Virus record (IMG/VR): IMGVR_UViG_3300009826_000027
DNA length: 51,290 bases
Source of the DNA: a virus
Reading direction: 5' to 3' (one strand)
The first letter of the stretch is position 1; each line of letters starts with the position of its first letter. Both the position numbers and the translations under genes were made by a program. Of this stretch, positions 1 through 51,290 are shown in pieces. The notes beneath the pieces are model-generated. The model searched no databases. It had not been told where the DNA came from and was given only the letters and a program-made list of their open reading frames with translations.

Positions 1-123
1 CCCTTCTGAAAATCGACGAGGTATCCGCTTGTCTACATATATCGGAGAACTTGCTCTGGATATGATAGTCGATGCGCCGCCGCGAGCACTACCTTGATAT
101 TTAGCATGTAATGCCGCGATACC
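1..123. repeat. Terminal direct repeat, left copy (identical to 51168..51290). Indicates a circular or circularly permuted genome closed by assembly overlap.
   Basis: Bases 1-123 (cccttctgaaaatcgacgag...atgccgcgatacc) recur verbatim as the last 123 bases of the window. The repeat lies inside an ORF and keeps its frame. Confidence 0.95.
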
Positions 124-4543: not shown

Positions 4544-7500
4544 TTAAACTGTCAAAGTGAGGCCCTCACCGGACCCTATTAATTTACAATTTCCACAATC
4601 TTTAATACATCCAGGAGGACAACCATGCGCACACCATGGTGGCACATTATCGTCTTCCATTGCTAAAAACCATTCAACATCGCCGAACTTTTTCAATGCT
4701 GCTATGGCGTCGTCGACTAAAGCATTAAAATACCCAAAATCAATCGAGTTTTCCTTCTCTAAAGTTTTTACCATCGCTTCTTCTAACCATCGGTAACCTT
4801 TACTACCGGTAGCGGCATTATATTTACCGTCTTTCTCTCTAAGTAGTATGCCGCCGCCATGATTAGGATAAATTGGACAGAATGAACCAACTTTTCCAAT
4901 TAAACGATATGAATGTTCGCCCTCGGGCAAATCCTCGTTCATATCTAAATACAGAGCAGTAGTGACCGTCTTTGTCTCACATAGATCTTTGAAATTTATT
5001 GGTCCAAAGCATGGGATTCCACGACCAGTCACATATCCATCCTTAAATAATGTCTTAAATACATAAGGATGTATCATTTGCGTTCCTATGGCATACCATT
5101 TGTTCTTTTCTTTACCGACATATACCGCGTCGTTCAACAAACAAAACTTACTATACGTTTTTTCATGCTCAAACGTATAGCCGTACTTTTTACCAAACTC
5201 AAAAATAAATTGCTTAAGTTCTTCGGTCGGATTAACAATTTTAATTGAATCGGTTTTAATGTGTATTACTTTACCTCCTCTCTCTGTTACTTGATGCATT
5301 AGTTCGATCATAAATAGCGCGCCGCGTTTAGCAACTATATTGTCTTTATTGCCCGGCACTGTGAACTTGCTATCAAAATTTTGTTTTGTATAGCCATACA
5401 CAGAATTAAGAACTATCTTTAACGCATATGCTAACTTTTTCATGCCAGTATCATCACTAATATATTTAGCAAAAACGCCGTCTAAAATTGTCGCTACAAG
5501 TTCTAGATCGTCATGTTTGATTCCTATACGTCCGTCAAGAACCTTCTTAAACTTTTCGGTATATGGACCGAATAAATTCAATTCTACTAAACTTGTCGGA
5601 TGCTGTGAGGCGATGTCATATTCATATACATGAGTATACATGCCGGGCATCGCATGCACAAAGCCTCCCTCGCCGACCTCTATGTCGCGATATATACTTT
5701 TACCACGGTCATGAGTGTACCCGGGAAAGAGCGTGCTTAAATCCGTATACACAAATTTTTCTTGTGGTCGTGGATCGGTTCCAAACAAAAATCGCGCAAT
5801 ATGATTCTGAGTTGTATCGTTTACTGACAACCCACTTAAATCCGATAAAATTTGTCTAGCTGTGAAATCCGCTTCTCTGGCATAGAAAACCGCTTCCGTA
5901 GCCACCACATCATTTATACAATAGTCAGCAACAAGTTGCCACTTTTCTTCGGGCACAGGTTCGTCCCACGGCAACCCAAGTTCTTGATGATGGATGCCAA
6001 GTTCTATTTCCCATTTCTTTAATCCTTGCTTGACGGAAGAAAAGTCATAGATATCCGTATATGATAAATTATATGCTTCACCAAAGAAGCAATTCTTACT
6101 ACCATTAACTATCTTCTGACTAAGATCGTAAATTTGAGCGAGATCGTAACCAATGTATCGGGCATATAAAATATGATTATCATATCTTCTACAGTTAAAT
6201 CCAACCAATTTAAACTGTAACAGTCGCCCAATATCTTCTGACGAAGGATTAATCATTGTAACGGCTGGTTTATCTGTAGTCTTCCACACAACTACTAATA
6301 GATTAGGAAAAACCTCGACGTCATAGAATAACAATTCATCAAACTCCGATTCCATCGGTTCACTAATTACTTCCGATGCAAAATGCATCTTATTGACAAT
6401 CTTTATTGCTGTTTCCGATTGATTTGAAGAATTATTTGCAAAGGCGAGGATTTTTGGTCGTAAATCTGTCACATCATATCGTACGCCGGTATTATATGCA
6501 TCGTCTAATATTTTTTGCATAAAGTCAACGTTAGATTTGGTGCCTGGATGAATCTCTTTTTTTAAAGCTTTGGTTATTAATGCTCGAAGATGTTTTTCAT
6601 CATTAACCACATCAACATTAATCATCTTTTCTCCTTTCAATGGCAGTCCACTATTGATCGTGAGTATTGGGGCATTGTTACACATAGTGAGTTTTCGTCG
6701 AAGCGATGCTTTACCAGTAAAGACTTTTATTTCTATACCTTCCGAATACACTCGACTAAGTCTGTTTGTATCTCCATCATATACATAATGAAGATGTATA
6801 CCGGTGCCACTTTTACTATACTCTGCATAAGTGACAGGCCATTTACTCGCCGCTTCTAAATTCAACATTAACGATTTATTACCATCACCATCTGTTAAAT
6901 CAAAATCTATGACTATATGATCCTCTGGCGGCTTAACGTAATGAAGCCTTCGAGGATTAATATTTGCCAGATTTGTTTTCACCTCGTCCCAACGCGCTAT
7001 CGGCGTACCTTCATCATTAGCATACTGTGCTGGACAATCAGCAAATAACTTGTCAAAATTTGATTCTTCTTGTTCTATCACCAAAGATAATGGCTTTTCT
7101 TCTATCATTTCTTCGGCAACAAACTTTACCATTTTAAACCCAATATAATAACTTCTTACCTCCCGACCGTCCACACGGCTTCGTTCTTTAAAATCTTCAA
7201 AATATGATTTTAACTCGTCACGAAATTTATGCCGTGGCAGTCGATATTCAATTAGTGCTTCCTCACAATATGTTTTATACATTGCGTAAGCTTGTACAAG
7301 TGCAACGCCGTCTTGTTCTTTAAACGTATGATAATTAGCTTCAACAAAGTTAAAGAATGTATCCGTTTGATACATCATCGTCAAAGGACGATATCCACTA
7401 TAATAATTTTTACCCAATCGTAAATATGCCTGTAAACATCGCCATGCGATTGCGCCGAGCTCGAAGTTTATTTGATTTATTAAAATATGATACTTTTTAA

Positions 7501-8446: not shown

Positions 8447-8454
8447 AGTTTCCT

Positions 8455-8740
8455 AAAATGCGTCAAAAAAGTGACGCAATGTCCCTGATGCGTCAAAAAT
8501 GTCAAATGCGTCAAAAGTCACTACGTTTTCAAAAGTTTTTACAAAGAAATTTCACAGAAGAAAACTTCTCTATATATTATATATTTTTACTTTTACTATA
8601 CTATAAAGAAAATAATGACATAATGACACAAATATCTCAAATACACTGGTAAATAGGGCTTTTTGCACGTCATTCACCCCAAATTATTTGACGTTTGCGT
8701 CAAAACCACTTGACACACTGCGTCATTTATTTGACGCGTC
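8455..8740. promoter_or_regulatory. Iteron cluster flanking an AT-rich core; candidate replication origin and/or operator-promoter of the replicase gene
   Basis: TGCGTCA occurs at 8459, 8489, 8507, 8696 and 8719. Inverted TGACGCA or variants occur at 8472, 8688 and 8731. There is a perfect inverted repeat tgcgtca-aaaaag-tgacgca at 8459-8478. The stretch of about 8521-8640 between the two clusters is AT-rich. Confidence 0.55.
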
Positions 8741-10020: not shown

Positions 10021-10037
10021 TGGTGAGATCTCCTTGT

Positions 10038-10130
10038 TTAATTAAAATGTCCGCATTTTGGACAGATAAAACTCATAGTATCTGTGAGTTCAGCATCGCA
10101 TTTTACACATGTTATTAAAAAAAACTTCAT
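10038..10130 (-). CDS. 30-aa zinc-ribbon mini-protein (not in the supplied ORF track)
   Basis: My translation gives MKFFLITCVKCDAELTDTMSFICPKCGHFN*, with a CxxC...CxxC pattern. The ATG follows a G-run. Confidence 0.4.
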   Translation of the reverse strand: MKFFLITCVKCDAELTDTMSFICPKCGHFN

Positions 10131-10133
10131 TTG

Positions 10134-10143
10134 CCCCCCCCCC
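10134..10143. repeat. Homopolymer C10 (G10 on the coding strand)
   Basis: Ten consecutive C bases between the stop of 10144..10506 and the start of the 30-aa ORF. Confidence 0.9.
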
Positions 10144-19837: not shown

Positions 19838-21448
19838 CTATGCACCATCCCTTAGTATAGTATATACGCCAGTTAGAGCTGAAGTAGGTCTTGTATTAGC
19901 GTATAGAACTACTGCATCGCCGTCGATTATACAAGCAGCCGGAATTCCAGCCGACGTTGCAATTAGTAACGATTGCAGTGTAAAATTAAAATTAATGACA
20001 TCGTTATGCTCAATATTTTCTATCTGAACCCGTAATTCCCAATCGAACGTGTCGTGGGAACTGGTTGTCCAAGCATTAACTAATAAATTAAATGGTCGTA
20101 TTATAGCGCGACCATCTATGCCCTGAGGACCTGGAGGACCGGTTTCGCCTTGAATGCCCTGAGGACCTGGAGGACCGGTTTCGCCTTGAATGCCCTGAGG
20201 ACCTGGAGGACCGGTTTCGCCTTGAATGCCCTGAGGACCGGTTTCGCCTTGTACGCCCTGTAGTCCTTGTGTCCCATCTTGACCGTCCGTACCAGCTACA
20301 CCTTGTGGTCCTTGTGGTCCTTGTTCGCCTATATCGCCCTTAGAACCTTGTACACCCTGGACGCCTTGCGGTCCTTCTGGACCGATGTCGCCTTGAGGAC
20401 CTATTGGGCCTTGTATACCCTGTTCTCCCTGTGGTCCTACCGGACCGATGTCGCCTTGTATACCCTGAATACCTTGTGCCCCTTCAAGACCCTGCGGTCC
20501 CATTTCGCCTTGTATACCCTGAATGCCTTGTGGTCCTTCAAGACCCTGCGGTCCCATTTCGCCTTGTATACCCTGAATGCCTTGTGGTCCTTCAGGACCG
20601 ATGTCGCCTTGAGGACCACGGAACTCGGTTCCTTCGCCAGAGGCAGGGAATACCGAACCTGACCAAATATAGAGAAGACCGTCGGCCCTATTCATCCATG
20701 CACGACCGGCGTCTCCCGCTCCAAGAGTTGATGCGATAGCTGCTAGCTCTGCGTATGTTAATACATCACCGGCAATTTCTATACCAGCGCCGTCCGCACC
20801 AGCTACCCCTTGTGGTCCTTGCGGACCGATTGGTCCTTGTATGCCTTGAGATCCATCATGACCTTGCTCGCCTTGGATTCCTTGTATGCCTTGAATGCCC
20901 TGAGGACCGGTTTCGCCTTGAATGCCCTGAATGCCTTGTGGTCCTTCAGGACCCTGAGGACCGATGTCGCCTTGTATGCCCTGAATACCTTGTGGTCCTA
21001 TGTCACCTTGTGTGCCGGTAAGACCCGGCTCTCCTTGTGGTCCTTGATAGCCTTGTACTCCTTGAGGACCTGGAGGACCGGTTTCGCCTTGAATGCCCTG
21101 AGGACCTGGAGGACCGGTTTCGCCTTGAATGCCCTGAGGACCGGTTTCGCCTTGAATGCCCTGAGGACCATTCGCGCCAGCTGGACCTTGCGGTCCGATT
21201 GGTCCTGGAGGTCCTTGTGGGCCGCTACCACCTGGTCCGCCAGAACCGCCTATATGATCAAGAATATTAAATTCATTACCATCTTTATCGATAAATATGG
21301 CGTTTATTGCCGTCATATTAGGTTTAATTTGGGATTTATTTATAAACGAACCGCTGGCTATATCGAAGTATTTATTATCTGGAGTTACGAATACTCCTAG
21401 TCCAGCTGCTCTATTTTGTTCTCTCACTTCGCTGTCATCTCCGATCAT
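19838..21448 (-). CDS. Collagen-like (Gly-X-Y) fibre protein (536 aa)
   Basis: Two long GXY tracts ([16 protein letters not shown]...) are separated by a non-collagenous insert ([16 protein letters not shown]...[17 protein letters not shown]). A globular C-terminal domain follows. Confidence 0.85.
20105..21245. repeat. In-frame DNA cassette repeats encoding GXY units
   Basis: A 36-nt unit gccctgaggacctggaggaccggtttcgccttgaat occurs x3 at 20120-20227 and again at about 21057-21156. A 54-nt unit occurs x2 at about 20484-20595. Confidence 0.85.
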
Positions 21449-42078: not shown

Positions 42079-43896
42079 TTATCCTACGGCCAGCTCGTCT
42101 GGAAGCTGCTCGACAACTATTGCCGATTTTGGACGGGTCAGCGCACCAGAACACCGGGTTTCGATTAAATATTTGTACTGGTTAAAGTCGATATCGAAAT
42201 CATCGAACATTGCGATCTCACCGCCACGATCCGCACCAATCGTGTAGTCCGAGAGATTAACTACTATACCAAGGAGAGTTCTAGTGCTTCCATCCACTTC
42301 ACGTTGTATGTCGTTCATTACTTCGACCTCAACAATACTACTGACTCGAAGTGTGGCTGCTAAATCGGCCTCATTCATATAAATTTTACGCCCGAGACCA
42401 TCTTTAAGCAAGAGCATTTCGGTTAGTAGTGCTGTGGATGTGTAAAGCGTCGGTTTGCCTGACCCTCTATATGCAATCCTGGCCCGTACAAACTCATCTA
42501 TTATAGTACTATGATTAGCATCACCAGAAACGAGATGTTCCACCACAAATATATCCGAATTATCAGTATAAATCGGGCGGATGTTTTGATCATTTATTTT
42601 ATCAGGATCGGATACATCGCGTCCGTCACCGATAAGAATTGCCCTGGCTAGTTCTTCATCGAGCATTTCTCGCATTTCACGTCGTAGCCATGCTACGACA
42701 TTGAAATCTGTAATATCGATTATATCGTCGCGATCTAACTTTTGTTTTTTATAAATGGTGGTCGGCGTTGTCACCCTTTTCATTAGAGGAATTATTTCCT
42801 CTTTTTTCCTATTGCCGGTAATATAACCACGCGCACGTGCGTCGTCATGATGCAAATCGGCAATTACGGTTTTTATTCTTGAAAACGGTGTTTTTTTTAT
42901 ATCGCGCAACACTCCAGCTACCCAGTCGTCAGGCCGTTTCCATGTCTGCGGTCCAGCACCATCAACGTTACGAGCTTCGGGAAATAAAATATCGATCGGC
43001 TCGAGCCCGTATTCATTTGTGGCATGTTCCACGAACGTGTCGCGCAGGGAAGTAGTTTTGTTGTCGCGAGCTGCGGACAAAATCGCACCGAACTCTTTAT
43101 GGGTTAATTGTTTAGTGTGTGACGATGATCCGCCAAACGCTTCAGATTCATTCGTATCGAATACGTTGTGTTTCATTATATATCCTCCATCTTCAAGATG
43201 TTTTGCCTCGCCTACTCCAGTGGATTGGCCTATCATATAGTATACTACTTGTTTCTGCTCCTCTGTGAGATCGTCAAAGACGTCTTTTATTGTACGTTCT
43301 TTTTGCGCGTGTGACATACTTGAAGACTGTGACATGTCATTCAAGCGTGCCATTATCGCGATCAATGCCGAATCGTTTAATGACGAGGAAGGGGGCAGAG
43401 GATCGGATAAAAAAGCATCATCGCTGTGTACTAATGGCTGACCGGAGTAAATGATACCGGTATCTGGAACTATTTCTACCATACCATCGGCATGCATAAT
43501 TGTTACCGCATCAATTAATGCGCCTGGATTAGCGCCAGCCAGTACTAGACTGACCTCATGAATTTTACCATGAATCACATTTTTTGTTTTCTCAACGAGA
43601 CTTCCTGCTTTAATCGAAAGTGACGTAATATCGCCATGCTTGACTAAAGCCTTACTTCTTTGGCCATAATCTGAATTGTTAAATTTTCCATGACAATACG
43701 TCCCATCAGGACGATCTTCTAGTAGTACTTGACCGATCACGGTCTCTGGTGTAGAGCTAGAATGCTGCCATACTAATGGTACGGTGTCGCCATTCTGATG
43801 GGCAAACGCACCCTTTACAATGGTGCGACCATCTGAACATCGCAGTCCATTTCTGGTAGCGTAACCGCTAAAATCAAAACCTGGTTTTGTGCTCAT
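42079..43896 (-). CDS. Fusion of an HK97-family prohead protease (S78) with the major capsid protein
   Basis: The N-terminal part, PLVWQHSSSTPETVIGQV...GDITSLSIKAG...IHEVSLVLAGANPGA, fits the S78 protease pattern. The C-terminal part of about 330 aa has an HK97-like MCP end (...LLGIVVNLSDYTIGADRGGE...LIETRCSGALTRPKSAIVVE). ATG 43896 is preceded by AAAGGAG. Confidence 0.7.
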   Translation of the reverse strand: MSTKPGFDFSGYATRNGLRCSDGRTIVKGAFAHQNGDTVPLVWQHSSSTPETVIGQVLLEDRPDGTYCHGKFNNSDYGQRSKALVKHGDITSLSIKAGSLVEKTKNVIHGKIHEVSLVLAGANPGALIDAVTIMHADGMVEIVPDTGIIYSGQPLVHSDDAFLSDPLPPSSSLNDSALIAIMARLNDMSQSSSMSHAQKERTIKDVFDDLTEEQKQVVYYMIGQSTGVGEAKHLEDGGYIMKHNVFDTNESEAFGGSSSHTKQLTHKEFGAILSAARDNKTTSLRDTFVEHATNEYGLEPIDILFPEARNVDGAGPQTWKRPDDWVAGVLRDIKKTPFSRIKTVIADLHHDDARARGYITGNRKKEEIIPLMKRVTTPTTIYKKQKLDRDDIIDITDFNVVAWLRREMREMLDEELARAILIGDGRDVSDPDKINDQNIRPIYTDNSDIFVVEHLVSGDANHSTIIDEFVRARIAYRGSGKPTLYTSTALLTEMLLLKDGLGRKIYMNEADLAATLRVSSIVEVEVMNDIQREVDGSTRTLLGIVVNLSDYTIGADRGGEIAMFDDFDIDFNQYKYLIETRCSGALTRPKSAIVVEQLPDELAVG

Positions 43897-43915
43897 AAAA
43901 TAAAGAGCTCCTTTC

Positions 43916-45160
43916 TTATTCATCTTCTTCGGAAGGGCGTTTTTCGGCCGATTCTTGATTCGCTTGATTAAGATTTCTATTGCGTAATTCGTCGGCCGCT
44001 GGATCTTCAGATGGTATAAATCCGATGAGTCCACGTATTTCATTGGGCGATAGGATCTCATTTCTGGTAAAGCGATCTGCGATAGTCGCGATCTCATTTA
44101 CCGGCGCAAGACCAAACACATCTCTGAAATACATAATTGATTGTTTCTGCGTTCTGGCAGTCTTTGTCAAGAACTTGCGATAGAACTCTTCCGTTATCGC
44201 ATTGAGTAACGGTTTGATAGTTCTACTCATATAATTCAACATGACTTTTTCGTCCGCCGTACCATTAAAGACCTCTTCGGTCAGTCCTAACTGGCGATAA
44301 AGCGTGCTCGTTAGGTACTGTACCTGGGCCATGAGGTTGTTTTCGGCCGGGCGATTTAATTGTGTAATTCGCTCGGTCCCATCGATATATGCGATGCCAT
44401 ACTGTGAGTCTCGCATTTGATCCTCGATATCTTGTCGACGGCGATCGGCTAGTTCGCGTTTCGCAGCGGACTTTAAGATATATGGCAGTTGGATGATTAT
44501 GTCGAGTTTACCAGCACCGGATTGTTCATCTATCGCATCAAGGATGGATAGTTTGCGAAGTAATCGCTTTAGAGTGCTATTCGGCTCATTCATTACCGCA
44601 TATAGCGGATTTTCGATGATCGCCACATTCTTTTTAGCAAGAAGGAGTTCTTTATGCGTACCGGTTTCGTCATCATAACAGTTAACTCTTACTTGCTGCG
44701 GATACCATCCAACTATCTTTGCGACCCGCAATTCTACAATGGTATACGAGTCGGTATCGCGTATATCGATATCCGTTTTAACGGGCACTACTGCCACCAC
44801 GCCTTCATCGAACATCGACATAGCCATGTCTTGTACAAGAGCACGGCCGGTTTGATCGATGTTGGCGCTGACCGATAAACATTCATTTAAACCCGATTTT
44901 CGGATATACTTGAACTTATCATTTTCATCCAGCTGCACATGACGAATATCGATAGCCGCCACGTCCATTGCCACTCTATTATAGAGCGATATAACTACTG
45001 ATCGCTCATTGGTTACACGGACGGGGCGACGATCATGACGAATATACGACTCATATCCTCCCGGATTATATTGTCGTAAATGTGGATATAGGATTGTGGG
45101 GTCCCTAGTCTTGAAAATATTCCACGCATGCTTAAGCGTGCCGAGTATTCGATTTGGCAT
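43916..45160 (-). CDS. Portal protein
   Basis: The call rests on position between the terminase and the protease/capsid gene, a size of 414 aa, and the pattern SLYNRVAMDVAAI... Confidence 0.65.
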   Translation of the reverse strand: MPNRILGTLKHAWNIFKTRDPTILYPHLRQYNPGGYESYIRHDRRPVRVTNERSVVISLYNRVAMDVAAIDIRHVQLDENDKFKYIRKSGLNECLSVSANIDQTGRALVQDMAMSMFDEGVVAVVPVKTDIDIRDTDSYTIVELRVAKIVGWYPQQVRVNCYDDETGTHKELLLAKKNVAIIENPLYAVMNEPNSTLKRLLRKLSILDAIDEQSGAGKLDIIIQLPYILKSAAKRELADRRRQDIEDQMRDSQYGIAYIDGTERITQLNRPAENNLMAQVQYLTSTLYRQLGLTEEVFNGTADEKVMLNYMSRTIKPLLNAITEEFYRKFLTKTARTQKQSIMYFRDVFGLAPVNEIATIADRFTRNEILSPNEIRGLIGFIPSEDPAADELRNRNLNQANQESAEKRPSEEDE

Positions 45161-48849: not shown

Positions 48850-48902
48850 AAGTTAAGGCCTCCTTTCACATAAATCTTTAATGACAGATTCTCCGTCAGT
48901 CT

Positions 48903-49007
48903 GAAAACATTTAGTTTTTGACTAGGGGTCCTTGAAAGGAGCTCCGGGCTCACCAATCCCGAAGATAAAGTGTCGGCTTTACCCCTAGTCAAAAACTAAA
49001 TGTTTTC
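48903..49007. repeat. Perfect 26-bp inverted repeat with a 53-nt spacer
   Basis: gaaaacatttagtttttgactagggg (48903-48928) pairs with cccctagtcaaaaactaaatgttttc (48982-49007). Confidence 0.95.
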
Positions 49008-49183
49008 TAAATTTTATCCCCCGGAGAAAAATTTAAAAGAGAGGCGATGCAAGGGGGGGTGGGTTTTTACGGACCCTGCCCCCATATACATAGGTGTGAT
49101 AGCCCCTAGTACGTCTAGAGGAAGCAACTGCGCGCATAATGAAATAGTTTTTCATTATGTTTTGTATACTTTTTTACAAGGGA

Positions 49184-49277
49184 CAAATACAGAAATAAAA
49201 AGAAATACAGAAATAAAAAACAAATACAGAAATAAAAAACAAATACAGAAATAAAAAACAAATACAGAAATAAAAAG
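49184..49277. repeat. Tandem repeat, 5 x 18-19 nt (CAAATACAGAAATAAAAAA)
   Basis: Copies start at 49184, 49202, 49221, 49240 and 49259. Confidence 0.95.
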
Positions 49278-49360
49278 TTTATAATTTCAAATAATGATAT
49301 TGTATGAAATTGAATATTTATCAATTAACGAGTGATTGGATGTGGTAATACGAGCTAAAA

Positions 49361-49498
49361 ATCTATATCATTGTATAATGATATAGATTCTTTTTAAATT
49401 GTAACGAAAAATCATTAAATTGAAATTATAGCATTATACAATGATATAGATTCTTTTTAAATTGTAACGAAAAATCATTAAATTGAAATTATAGCATT
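49361..49498. repeat. 12-bp inverted repeat (49361-49388) leading into a 59-bp perfect repeat present twice with a 63-nt period
   Basis: The inverted repeat is atctatatcatt-gtat-aatgatatagat. The repeat aatgatatagattctttttaaattgtaacgaaaaatcattaaattgaaattatagcatt occurs at 49377-49435 and 49440-49498. Confidence 0.95.
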
Positions 49499-49530
49499 TA
49501 AACTAAAATTTACTTATTTTAGAAATTACA

Positions 49531-49660
49531 AATTCTAACAAAAAAAGATTTGTAATTAATTATCTATAGAATCGTTGAAACGAAGGCATCTATAAATTGT
49601 AATGTATGTGTGGGAGAGAATAAGATACATCAGGCATTACAAATCTTTTTTGTTAGAATT
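49531..49660. repeat. About 25-bp inverted repeat with a 79-nt spacer
   Basis: aattctaacaaaaaaagatttgtaat (49531-49556) pairs with attacaaatcttttttgttagaatt (49636-49660), with a one-base bulge. Confidence 0.9.
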
Positions 49661-50059
49661 TATGACTCTACTCGAAACTCAAAGGCGTTAAAATAAAACA
49701 CATATAGGCGTGAGTAAACAATCAATCATGTGTTCGATGACTGACAATATAAATATATAATTAATATGTAAGGTATATATGCCATTATATAGATATGAAT
49801 GTTACAAAGGAATAAATATCATGAGTAGACAGGATAACCTCAAACATAAACGTAGACGTAGACGCCGACACTTTACTTTCCAGAACTAGCGAGTCTAAAA
49901 ACGCTTTCAAACAATGATTTATTCAATAAAATACGCCATATTTAAAAGGGGTATGTAATATAAGGTGCATCATAAAGATCGAGTCCATATACGCATTCAC
50001 TACGATAGACAAGCTATTAACATCATTCAATAAAGGCAGGATCTAAAGGATATAAAGAT

Positions 50060-50146
50060 TTAAAATAGGGCCCTATTTTAAAGACTGTCCTATTAACACA
50101 AGACACATTAAAAGTAGGACTTGTATAGTAAGGACCCTGTTTTAAA
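50060..50146. promoter_or_regulatory. 22-bp perfect palindrome plus a third copy of its half-site (AGGNCCCTNTTTTAAA); candidate protein-binding sites
   Basis: The palindrome ttaaaatagggccctattttaa lies at 50060-50081. The half-site aggaccctgttttaaa lies at 50131-50146. Confidence 0.5.
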
Positions 50147-50201
50147 TCGATGGGGGGGTTATAGGGGGGCTCAAGGTAGAATCAAAGACTAGTGTGTCTT
50201 T

Positions 50202-50444: not shown

Positions 50445-51290
50445 TTATTTCAAAGCCTCCATTAAAGTCGAAACAGAGATTCCTAATTGAGCTGCGACCT
50501 CTGCTTGAGTGAATCCTCCTGCTAACATCGCCCTTGCTCTTCCTGTATTAACTTGTGCGAGGGGGGTCTGTCTAGGTGTGGCAAGCTGCTTAACTTGATC
50601 TAGATTAGTATTCGTTAAGATGTCGGCCAATCGAGTAGGACTTATTGCCCCTGCTTGAATGGCCTCCCATTCTCTTTCTGAAATAACAATTCTATCCTTA
50701 CCCGCTCCGGTTCTAGCACGAGCTTCGGCTAATGCCTGATTACGTACTTTAGTAAGAGCATCACGATCGGTATCCAAGGAAGGATTTTCTTGTCGTTTAC
50801 GATTTACAATACTTGTCGCTATCATTTGCGCTTGTCGCTCTAAAGGAGCATTCTTATTGGCGGCATTTAAAGCAGCAGTTAATCTGGCCACTTCAGCGGA
50901 ATAAGTTTGTCTTGCCGTAGGACTATAAGAAGTAGGTACTATTCCTAATGACTCTCGACGCGCACTATTAGCTAAAGCCTTTAAGTTATTGGCAAATCCG
51001 GCATAAATCTCTTCTACATGTTGACCAGAGGATAATATGCGCGCATCTGAGGTCTCTGCCATGCGGGTTGTGCGAGTTTGGGTTTTAACCGTTTCCCCTT
51101 TGGCGTTGACAAAAGATTCCGCAACCACCGTAAACTCTCGTTCGCCTGTATGAGGGTTTATAGGCCCCCCTTCTGAAAATCGACGAGGTATCCGCTTGTC
51201 TACATATATCGGAGAACTTGCTCTGGATATGATAGTCGATGCGCCGCCGCGAGCACTACCTTGATATTTAGCATGTAATGCCGCGATACC
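50445..51290 (-). CDS. C-terminal part of the two-barrel RNA polymerase ORF (240 unique codons, 50445-51167; 51168-51290 duplicates 1-123)
   Basis: Codon phase at 51167 equals that of the track ORF 50445..51128 (both positions are 2 mod 3). My translation gives ...RRFSEGGPINPHTGEREFTVVAESFVNAKG.... A C-terminal HTH-like segment GGFTQAEVAAQLGISVSTLMEALK lies at 50448-50519. Confidence 0.75.
   Translation of the reverse strand, partial: GIAALHAKYQGSARGGASTIISRASSPIYVDKRIPRRFSEGGPINPHTGEREFTVVAESFVNAKGETVKTQTRTTRMAETSDARILSSGQHVEEIYAGFANNLKALANSARRESLGIVPTSYSPTARQTYSAEVARLTAALNAANKNAPLERQAQMIATSIVNRKRQENPSLDTDRDALTKVRNQALAEARARTGAGKDRIVISEREWEAIQAGAISPTRLADILTNTNLDQVKQLATPRQTPLAQVNTGRARAMLAGGFTQAEVAAQLGISVSTLMEALK
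51168..51290. repeat. Terminal direct repeat, right copy
   Basis: Identical to bases 1-123. Confidence 0.95.

Follow-up and report, generated by a model that had tools for sequence, protein, structure and literature searches.

Record IMGVR_UViG_3300009826_000027 of IMG/VR is a viral DNA of 51,290 nucleotides, and this whole stretch is the window to which all positions below refer. Its sense strand is the minus strand, which carries nearly all of the long open reading frames (ORFs) in the ORF list. The subject here is the non-coding interval 48850–50201, which holds a candidate cohesive-end (cos) packaging site, a long leader hairpin, and an AT-rich spacer packed with repeats. The two ends of the window (1–123 and 51168–51290) are identical over 123 bp, which indicates that the window is a circular metagenome assembly of approximately 51,167 bp; the genome is that of a siphovirus. 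It belongs to the 1706-like/Arthrobacter AU/Streptomyces BI supergroup with an RNA polymerase resembling RNA-dependent RNA polymerases (RdRP-like). Such a putative RNA polymerase, RdRP-like and YonO/crAss-like, has been described as the signature of a supergroup comprising Streptomyces BI, Arthrobacter AM/AU/AW, Gordonia DJ, Rhodococcus CC, Microbacterium EL, Lactococcus 1706-like, and Faecalibacterium phages (bioRxiv 10.1101/842583).

Gene identities were taken from protein-family scans (phrog families), and all of the genes named here lie on the minus strand. Upstream of the interval is the C-terminus of the RdRP-like polymerase (51290–50445; phrog_4291, "RNA-dependent RNA polymerase"-like), whose gene wraps the window ends; among bacterial genomes, metagenome-assembled genomes of Collinsella and Clostridia gave the best match to this C-terminus, at 45% identity. 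The initial annotation had placed the interval downstream of the polymerase gene; a conserved 79-aa gene intervenes (50441–50202; phrog_4303), which in relatives is the last before the right genome end. On the other side follow gene 1 (48849–48508; 113 aa, phrog_4259), an HNH endonuclease (48569–48102; phrog_4321) that probably works with the large terminase when cos is cut, a connector protein (48111–47767), a 244-aa protein with no function assigned (47751–47017), and the large terminase (47069–45270). The latter is 75–82% identical to relatives with the same cos core and 75–78% identical to BI phages.

The interval itself has no credible gene, as had been proposed: its ORFs are at most 84 aa and cross repeats or cos, and gene callers found no gene in the equivalent interval of L003, a contig from another sample. 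No other part of the window is as rich in AT (GC 0.27–0.29 vs approximately 0.42). No tRNA was detected in the region; against Rfam, nothing reached the gathering score, and microRNA noise was all that appeared at E ≤ 1. Comparison of the region with phage records by megablast and blastn gave nothing or chance matches, and an exact search of viral contigs for the inverted-repeat arm gave no match. A plus-strand ORF of 36 aa (49779–49889), probably not a gene, ends in KHKRRRRRRHFTFQN, encoded by ACGTAG hexamer repeats.

The cos site

Several lines of evidence place the genome ends in this interval. First, the C-terminus of the polymerase and the 79-aa protein mapped by tblastn to the extreme right end in 250 records of isolated phages, and a gene 1 homologue lay at or near the left end in 231; the annotated ends of DrGrey, Circum, Rickmore, and P092 agree with this placement. 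Since the 79-aa homologue is last and the gene 1 homologue first or early in relatives, their physical ends fall in the equivalent interval. Second, the record ends of these four phages share a G-run, a C-run, and TGCATCGCCnnnCT on one side of the junction and CCnnAAAAAnnCCCCGGGGG on the other. The minus strand of the window has the same core, GGGGGCAGGGTCCGTAAAAACCCACCCCCCCTTGCATCGCCTCTCT joined to TTTAAATTTTTCTCCGGGGGATAAAATTT, and the spacing from ATCGCC to YCCGGGGG is 17 nt in both the window and the relatives. The composite cos motif occurs once in the window (49018–49057), with 0 matches in 100 shuffles. Third, HNH, large terminase, and portal genes adjoin the site. Physical ends have been reported for members of the supergroup: Cluster AU phages have a 9-base 3′ extension with the right end CGCCGGCCT (PMC5679793), and the 3′ overhang is CGCCCCAGTC in P092, by Sanger sequencing, and GCCCTGTCT in 1706 (PMC4110766). 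It is thus strongly supported that 48850–50201 contains the cos of the 1706-like/AU/BI/DJ supergroup. The expectation of a cos or pac site was borne out as a cos with a conserved core, placed to the base by alignment with relatives.

The site as a whole (49017–49090, minus strand) comprises three parts. Its right-side box GGGGGCAGGGTCCGTAAAAACCCACCCCCCC (49053–49083), in which a G-run and a C-run form an imperfect inverted repeat, is kept in all relatives. Next comes the predicted 9-nt 3′ cohesive overhang CGCCTCTCT (49038–49046), assigned by alignment with relatives, and then the predicted left genome end TTTAAATTTTTCTCCGGGGGA (49017–49037), which includes the conserved YCCGGGGG box. By the same alignment the left end would start at 49037, and the predicted nicks fall between 49038 and 49037 on the top strand and after ...TTGCAT on the bottom strand. 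These exact nick positions are inferred for this phage by transfer from aligned relatives. A degenerate second cos beside the 79-aa gene was considered and rejected, as its local alignment scored no better than shuffled sequence (21 vs 16.2 ± 2.2); the likeness of the G7-TTATA-G6 tract at 50153–50170 to the cos box is not significant.

The ends of metagenome contigs bear on the same point. Eighty metagenome relatives with a large terminase 75–82% identical were compared, and 11 of them, as independent contigs, begin exactly at the homologous left-end base (locus position 1 in L014, L041, L052, L054, L066, L070, L079, L084, L086, L090, and L093). On the other side of the cut, L096 ends exactly at ...TGCAT, directly before the overhang, L099 at the equivalent ...AT, and L095 3 nt into the overhang. 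Ends at or within 3 nt of the duplex end are what blunted 3′ overhangs should give. Headful (pac) packaging or direct terminal repeats, with the conserved motif serving some other purpose, would have to be reconciled with this pile-up of contig ends at the cos motif, with cohesive ends defined experimentally at that motif in relatives, and with an HNH and large-terminase arrangement typical of cos phages; such an explanation is highly improbable.

The leader hairpin

Between the predicted left end and gene 1, the sense strand can fold into a long hairpin, H1 (48903–49007, minus strand; folding z −6.2), with a perfect 27-bp stem and a 51-nt loop. Its arms are the 26-bp perfect inverted repeat of the initial annotation, which exists and is perfect but is 27 nt long (48903–48929/48981–49007). 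The loop holds an inner hairpin by folding (48942–48964, minus strand) and a copy of the motif CTCCTTTC, which matches the anti-Shine–Dalgarno end of 16S rRNA. This copy, CTCCTTTCA (48933–48941, minus strand), is the window's only one on the sense strand. The Shine–Dalgarno region of gene 1, GTGAAAGGAGG (48859–48869, minus strand), contains nine bases that could pair without mismatch with the loop motif CUCCUUUCA.

Every low-GC relative has a long hairpin between cos and gene 1, with a stem of at least 19 bp that starts 25–60 nt past the left end, upstream of gene 1, a layout to which the window conforms. The loop carries CTCCTTTC on the sense strand in all hairpins compared, preceded by a T/C-rich tract of approximately 18 nt. 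The H1 loop shares approximately 80% identity with the loop of L014, whose large terminase is the most similar among the relatives. Among the metagenome relatives, 20 arm families have stems of 27–48 bp and arm sequences that are unrelated (26% identity). The 5′ arm pairs at 93.6% with its own 3′ arm, compared to 39.9% with the arms of other families; folding z-scores span −1.6 to −9.7, with greater stability on the sense strand in 18 of the 20. A pattern scan of IMG/VR for cos and CTCCTTTC at the observed spacing found at least 120 viral contigs. The matches listed contain 66 arm families, with a median stem of 34 bp (range 19–60) and a median loop of approximately 60 nt.

The stems also indicate which strand is folded. 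Across the 66 arm families among the matches listed, G·T mismatches outnumbered A·C mismatches by 235 to 56 (binomial p = 3e-27). As the sense strand of the genome is rich in both G and A, composition should not make G·T commoner than A·C; the bias is indicative of pairing on the sense strand, most simply as RNA. To test covariation, 11 members of one sub-family were aligned with MAFFT by sequence alone, and RNAalifold then gave 31 pairs, of which 24 still paired through two-sided changes and three were conserved G·U. The proportion of paired cells was 97.6%, compared to 79.1% in shuffles (0 of 500 reached the observed value) and 35–46% with slid partners. A MAFFT alignment of trimmed arms was out of register and hence was excluded from the pair counts. 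R1, a covariance model of the sub-family, scored relatives at 26–91 bits on the sense strand, with antisense scores at the same sites much lower or absent. Since related stems covary and favor G·U on the sense strand, these results suggested that the element folds as RNA. Within the covarying stem, a GAGC/GUUC block is nearly invariant (alignment A5, columns 25–28/125–128; G·U pair in 9 of 11), and may be a recognition site for a protein or an RNase.

Furthermore, several gut relatives have a sense-strand tRNA-Leu (anticodon CAG or TAA) between the hairpin and gene 1 (L021 6064–6150, L022 6021–6107, L027 5685–5772, L031 6042–6129, L036 6021–6107, L045 6051–6137, and L046 5940–6026), which argues that this interval is transcribed; the window has none. 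The H1 stem is a double-stranded stem longer than the approximately 20 bp of RNase III substrates and lies in this presumably transcribed interval, and H1 may act as a processing or stability element of the RNase III–substrate type.

One other explanation of the loop motif was rejected and a second was considered. The first is an antisense small ORF with GAAAGGAG as its ribosome-binding site: a start codon stood at the right spacing in 29 of 85 contexts, the lengths and sequences of such ORFs are not conserved, and such a start codon is lacking in the window, L014, L094, and L097. The second is boxA, the NusB/NusE site. The invariant CC of the motif fits the anti-Shine–Dalgarno sequence exactly, and boxA consensus sequences are not known to contain it. 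The conserved hairpin with its anti-Shine–Dalgarno loop appears to be undescribed and to have no Rfam family.

The AT-rich spacer and its repeats

Upstream of cos, positions 49091–50201 form a spacer that is absent from relatives. In relatives cos lies 44–361 nt past the last stop codon vs approximately 1155 nt here, and the whole interval between the flanking genes is 330–700 bp in most relatives vs 1352 bp here. The conservation in related phages to which the initial annotation had looked was found for the cos core and the hairpin, but not for this repeat spacer of approximately 1.1 kb. L003 differs from the window solely in lacking one 63-bp unit and two of the 19-mers, and a Logan contig breaks within the 19-mer array.

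Every repeat that had been listed for the interval is real, with small corrections of length and position. On the plus strand, an AT-rich hairpin and the T-run after it occupy 49134–49175 (−14.2 kcal/mol, z −3.4) and look like a terminator only for plus-strand (antisense) transcription. Five abutting 19-mers, ACAAATACAGAAATAAAAA, occupy 49183–49276, with three in L003; their A-tracts recur every ~9.5 bp, a period that suggests intrinsic curvature. The supposed 12-bp inverted repeat exists but extends to 16 nt (49357–49372/49377–49392), and the supposed 59-bp duplication is a tandem repeat, but of a 63-bp unit, with 2.2 copies at 49359–49498 on the minus strand and 1.2 in L003. Both the 19-mer and the 63-bp unit are confined to 48850–50201 within the window. 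The paired 63-bp copies form hairpin H63 (49357–49455, minus strand; z −9.7). The long-range inverted repeat (49530–49567/49625–49661) was found and lies in hairpin H2 (49528–49663, minus strand), with a stem of approximately 28 bp and a loop of approximately 79 nt whose inner loop shows CUCUCCC; its folding energy is −38.0 kcal/mol on the sense strand (z −9.0) and −34.3 on the antisense. The palindrome and its extra half-site both exist, although the palindrome, which is perfect, measures 24 bp (50059–50082) rather than 22; the third half-site is at 50131–50148, and the half-site has three exact matches in the region vs 0.77 expected in the whole window. Both elements are in hairpin H3, just past the last gene (50057–50148, minus strand; −29.3 kcal/mol, z −4.1), which may act as a weak terminator because a weak U-rich tail follows the palindrome on the sense strand. 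A scan for intrinsic terminators (GC-rich stem and U-run) on the transcribed strand found none, and the candidates were AT-rich stems. The G/C runs also proved real (49018–49022, 49053–49059, 49079–49083, 50153–50159, and 50165–50170).

The spacer could be regarded as a replication origin, in which the 19-mers serve as initiator-bound iterons and the DNA of 27–29% GC as the unwinding element. Five direct repeats of 19 bp beside the most AT-rich DNA of the genome are of iteron size (at least 3 repeats of 17–22 bp), and several long inverted repeats are present. However, the spacer is absent from every relative despite shared replication genes, the window has 5 copies of the 19-mer and L003, identical in other respects, has 3, the units follow one another every 19 bp and are off helical phase, and there is no adjacent initiator gene, as the neighbors are the 79-aa gene and gene 1. 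A better candidate than 48850–50201 for an origin or early control is the 280-bp gap 8447–8726, upstream of the gene for a 1300-aa primase-helicase (DUF5906), with at least 6 copies of TTGACGCA, some inverted, around the AT-rich core TATATAATATATAG. An origin in the spacer is accordingly judged quite unlikely. A plasmid-like partition (centromere) site has the tandem direct repeats as its sole point in favor; the repeats are not conserved, none of the genes seen near the region in the protein-family scans is a partition gene, and the relatives are virulent phages with linear cos genomes, so that this idea is exceedingly improbable. The second origin or partition-like site envisaged in the initial annotation was not supported, given repeats that are absent from all relatives and that differ in copy number between otherwise identical assemblies.

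It is also possible, but doubtful, that the spacer holds one or more promoters for the operon of packaging and structural genes, from which either the sigma-A RNA polymerase of the host or the RdRP-like polymerase of the phage would transcribe, with the 63-bp units duplicating the promoter and the A-tract 19-mers forming curved DNA downstream. On the sense strand each 63-bp unit has a sigma-A-like TTTAAA-17-TATAAT, with an extended −10 TGCTATAAT at its start, and some relatives, in which an intrinsic terminator follows the last gene, require transcription to start anew ahead of gene 1. Nevertheless, sigma-70-like sites are not above chance (11 vs 8.2 ± 2.9 in shuffles), the sequence is not conserved, and no motif was common to other intergenic gaps, where only AT-rich 9-mers were found. 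L094 and L039 have no room for a promoter upstream of cos, so a promoter here is not a conserved feature of the group. A late promoter in this region is possible for this phage.

Finally, the spacer may have little or no function. It would then be either AT-rich DNA prone to slippage or what is left of an inserted element, tolerated because it lies in the only large gap between genes. Otherwise identical genomes differ in its copy number, its sequence is peculiar to this phage, and L099 has an unrelated spacer of approximately 840 nt at the same place. Phage genomes are compact, however; the folds of the three long hairpins are much more stable than those of shuffles (z −4 to −9.7), with H2 and H63 more stable on the sense strand, and the spacer was retained in at least two samples. 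We hold this explanation to be possible, though less likely than not, and conclude that the spacer is lineage-specific and unstable, with an accessory role, if any. The L099 spacer (5244–6131) makes that contig a second lineage with a long distance from last gene to cos; it has 40% GC and no ORF above 69 aa.

Elsewhere in the window, the genes for the portal, the protease/capsid, and a 2435-aa tape measure protein lie downstream of the large terminase on the minus strand. A 672-aa ORF (42079–44097) matches prohead protease and major capsid protein and, as listed, overlaps the portal ORF (43916–45160) by approximately 180 nt; its true start is probably further downstream (605 aa in L003). A minus-strand ORF of 536 aa (19838–21448) holds many tandem repeats of 9, 27, 36, 54, and 63 bp (20118–21178; GC up to 0.54) and resembles a collagen-like Gly-X-Y repeat protein, probably a tail fiber. 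Plus-strand ORFs at 236–1196 are antisense to the polymerase gene and probably spurious. A run of ten G at 10134–10143 (sense strand) opens the intergenic gap 10021–10143 and could be slippage-prone or a sequencing artifact. The AlphaFold model of the gene 1 protein has two long helices (pLDDT 83), and the protein has no Pfam or PDB sequence match and no Foldseek match at E ≤ 0.001; these searches gave no support to gene 1 as a small terminase.

Joined ends, late transcription, and related systems

Very probably, the region is where both ends of a cos-type siphovirus genome meet, with a leader hairpin and an accessory spacer; the ends appear joined because the metagenome assembly is circular. 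The large terminase and the adjacent HNH endonuclease would make two nicks 9 nt apart, leaving ...CCCCCCCTTGCAT at the right end, extended 3′ by CGCCTCTCT, and TTTAAATTTTTCTCCGGGGG... at the left end, and after injection the ends would anneal and then be ligated. The cos box begins 10–35 nt past the last stop codon in L094 and L039, and other relatives have an intrinsic terminator after the last gene. With a single gene direction and with cos 10–35 nt past the last stop in several relatives, packaging and structural transcripts would have to run across cos in its joined form. Such transcripts would most simply account for both the structural operon and the hairpin RNA, as in the late transcript of lambda, and we infer read-through transcription over cos in this phage. 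Downstream of cos the transcript would fold into the long hairpin at 48903–49007, where it may be processed, and the H1 loop would expose an anti-Shine–Dalgarno copy able to pair with the ribosome-binding site of gene 1. The spacer 49091–50201 would stand outside the conserved packaging apparatus and might add at most an extra promoter or terminator, or DNA curvature.

Several points weigh against this interpretation. The cohesive ends of this phage are predicted from those of relatives, and the overhang could be 10 nt, as in P092. No small terminase was identified among the window genes. The R1 model, built on one sub-family, scored H1 at 25.0 bits on the sense strand vs 23.6 on the antisense, with the loop skipped; at only 25 bits, homology of H1 rests on its position, its loop motif, and the loop identity with L014. 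The window's own stem is perfect, so that H1 itself gives no strand information, and the G·T excess could in principle reflect single-stranded DNA of the sense strand rather than RNA. In addition, a spacer of 1.1 kb kept in two samples might have an undetected function.

Compared to the cos sites of P092, 1706, and clusters AU, BI, and DJ, the site described here has the same flanking genes and neighboring HNH, large terminase, and portal genes, the same G-run/C-run box, the invariant ATCGC, and the same 17–18 nt to YCCGGGGG, and it is predicted to share the 9-nt 3′ overhang beginning with CGCC. It differs in its overhang sequence (CGCCTCTCT), in its distance from the last gene (approximately 1155 nt rather than 44–361 nt), and in that its ends are predicted. 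Staggered nicking at a fixed site by large terminase, as proposed here, is shared with the cos of lambda and HK97 (cosQ-cosN-cosB), an HNH gene beside the packaging genes is shared with HK97-like HNH-dependent cos cutting, and the crossing of the joined cos by a late transcript is proposed here as in lambda. The predicted 9-nt 3′ overhang compares with 12 nt, 5′, in lambda and 10 nt, 3′, in HK97. Unlike in those phages, the order here is gene 1, HNH, connector, 244-aa protein, and large terminase, with no small terminase identified.

The leader hairpin resembles the RNase III hairpins of T7, lambda, and SP82 and the leader–trailer helix of pre-16S rRNA in having a long, near-perfect stem (27–60 bp) between gene blocks of a one-direction genome. 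Related stems show covariation and conserved G·U, as RNase III processing hairpins do, and cleavage here is putative. The loop shares with pre-16S rRNA the 16S 3′-end sequence CUCCUUUC, often as CUCCUUUCAAGGA, for which the comparable rrn sequence is CCUCCUUUCUAAGGA; the rRNA resemblance is limited to 8–13 nt. Unlike T7 sites, the loop is 20–180 nt long and has a polypyrimidine tract. The direct repeats of approximately 19 bp beside AT-rich DNA recall iteron origins such as lambda ori and P1 oriR, but here the units abut with no spacer, are out of phase, unstable in copy number, and not conserved, and have no adjacent initiator.

A more far-reaching proposal, which we consider rather unlikely, is that the hairpin is a widespread undescribed RNA element (at least 120 viral contigs) made only once the ends are joined, with a polypyrimidine loop that ends in an exact copy of the 16S anti-Shine–Dalgarno. 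Such an element might act in cis, as a circularization-dependent gate on translation of the first packaging gene, or in trans, after its release by RNase III, as a sponge for Shine–Dalgarno sequences or a decoy for factors or toxins that recognize the 16S 3′ end.

Placing cos at the base level allows a correct linear map of this uncultured phage and serves hundreds of gut and soil relatives assembled as circles or broken contigs. The site explains why many metagenome contigs of the group break at one position, and contig ends at the nick positions can be used to call termini and overhang length with no need for virion DNA. That the conspicuous repeats lie outside the conserved packaging machinery makes an origin or a partition site less attractive. 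The cos site itself is ordinary, and the most interesting item is the conserved hairpin with its anti-Shine–Dalgarno loop, which sits where late-gene expression meets genome circularization and is testable in cultured relatives, namely Lactococcus P092 and 1706 and Faecalibacterium FP_oengus.

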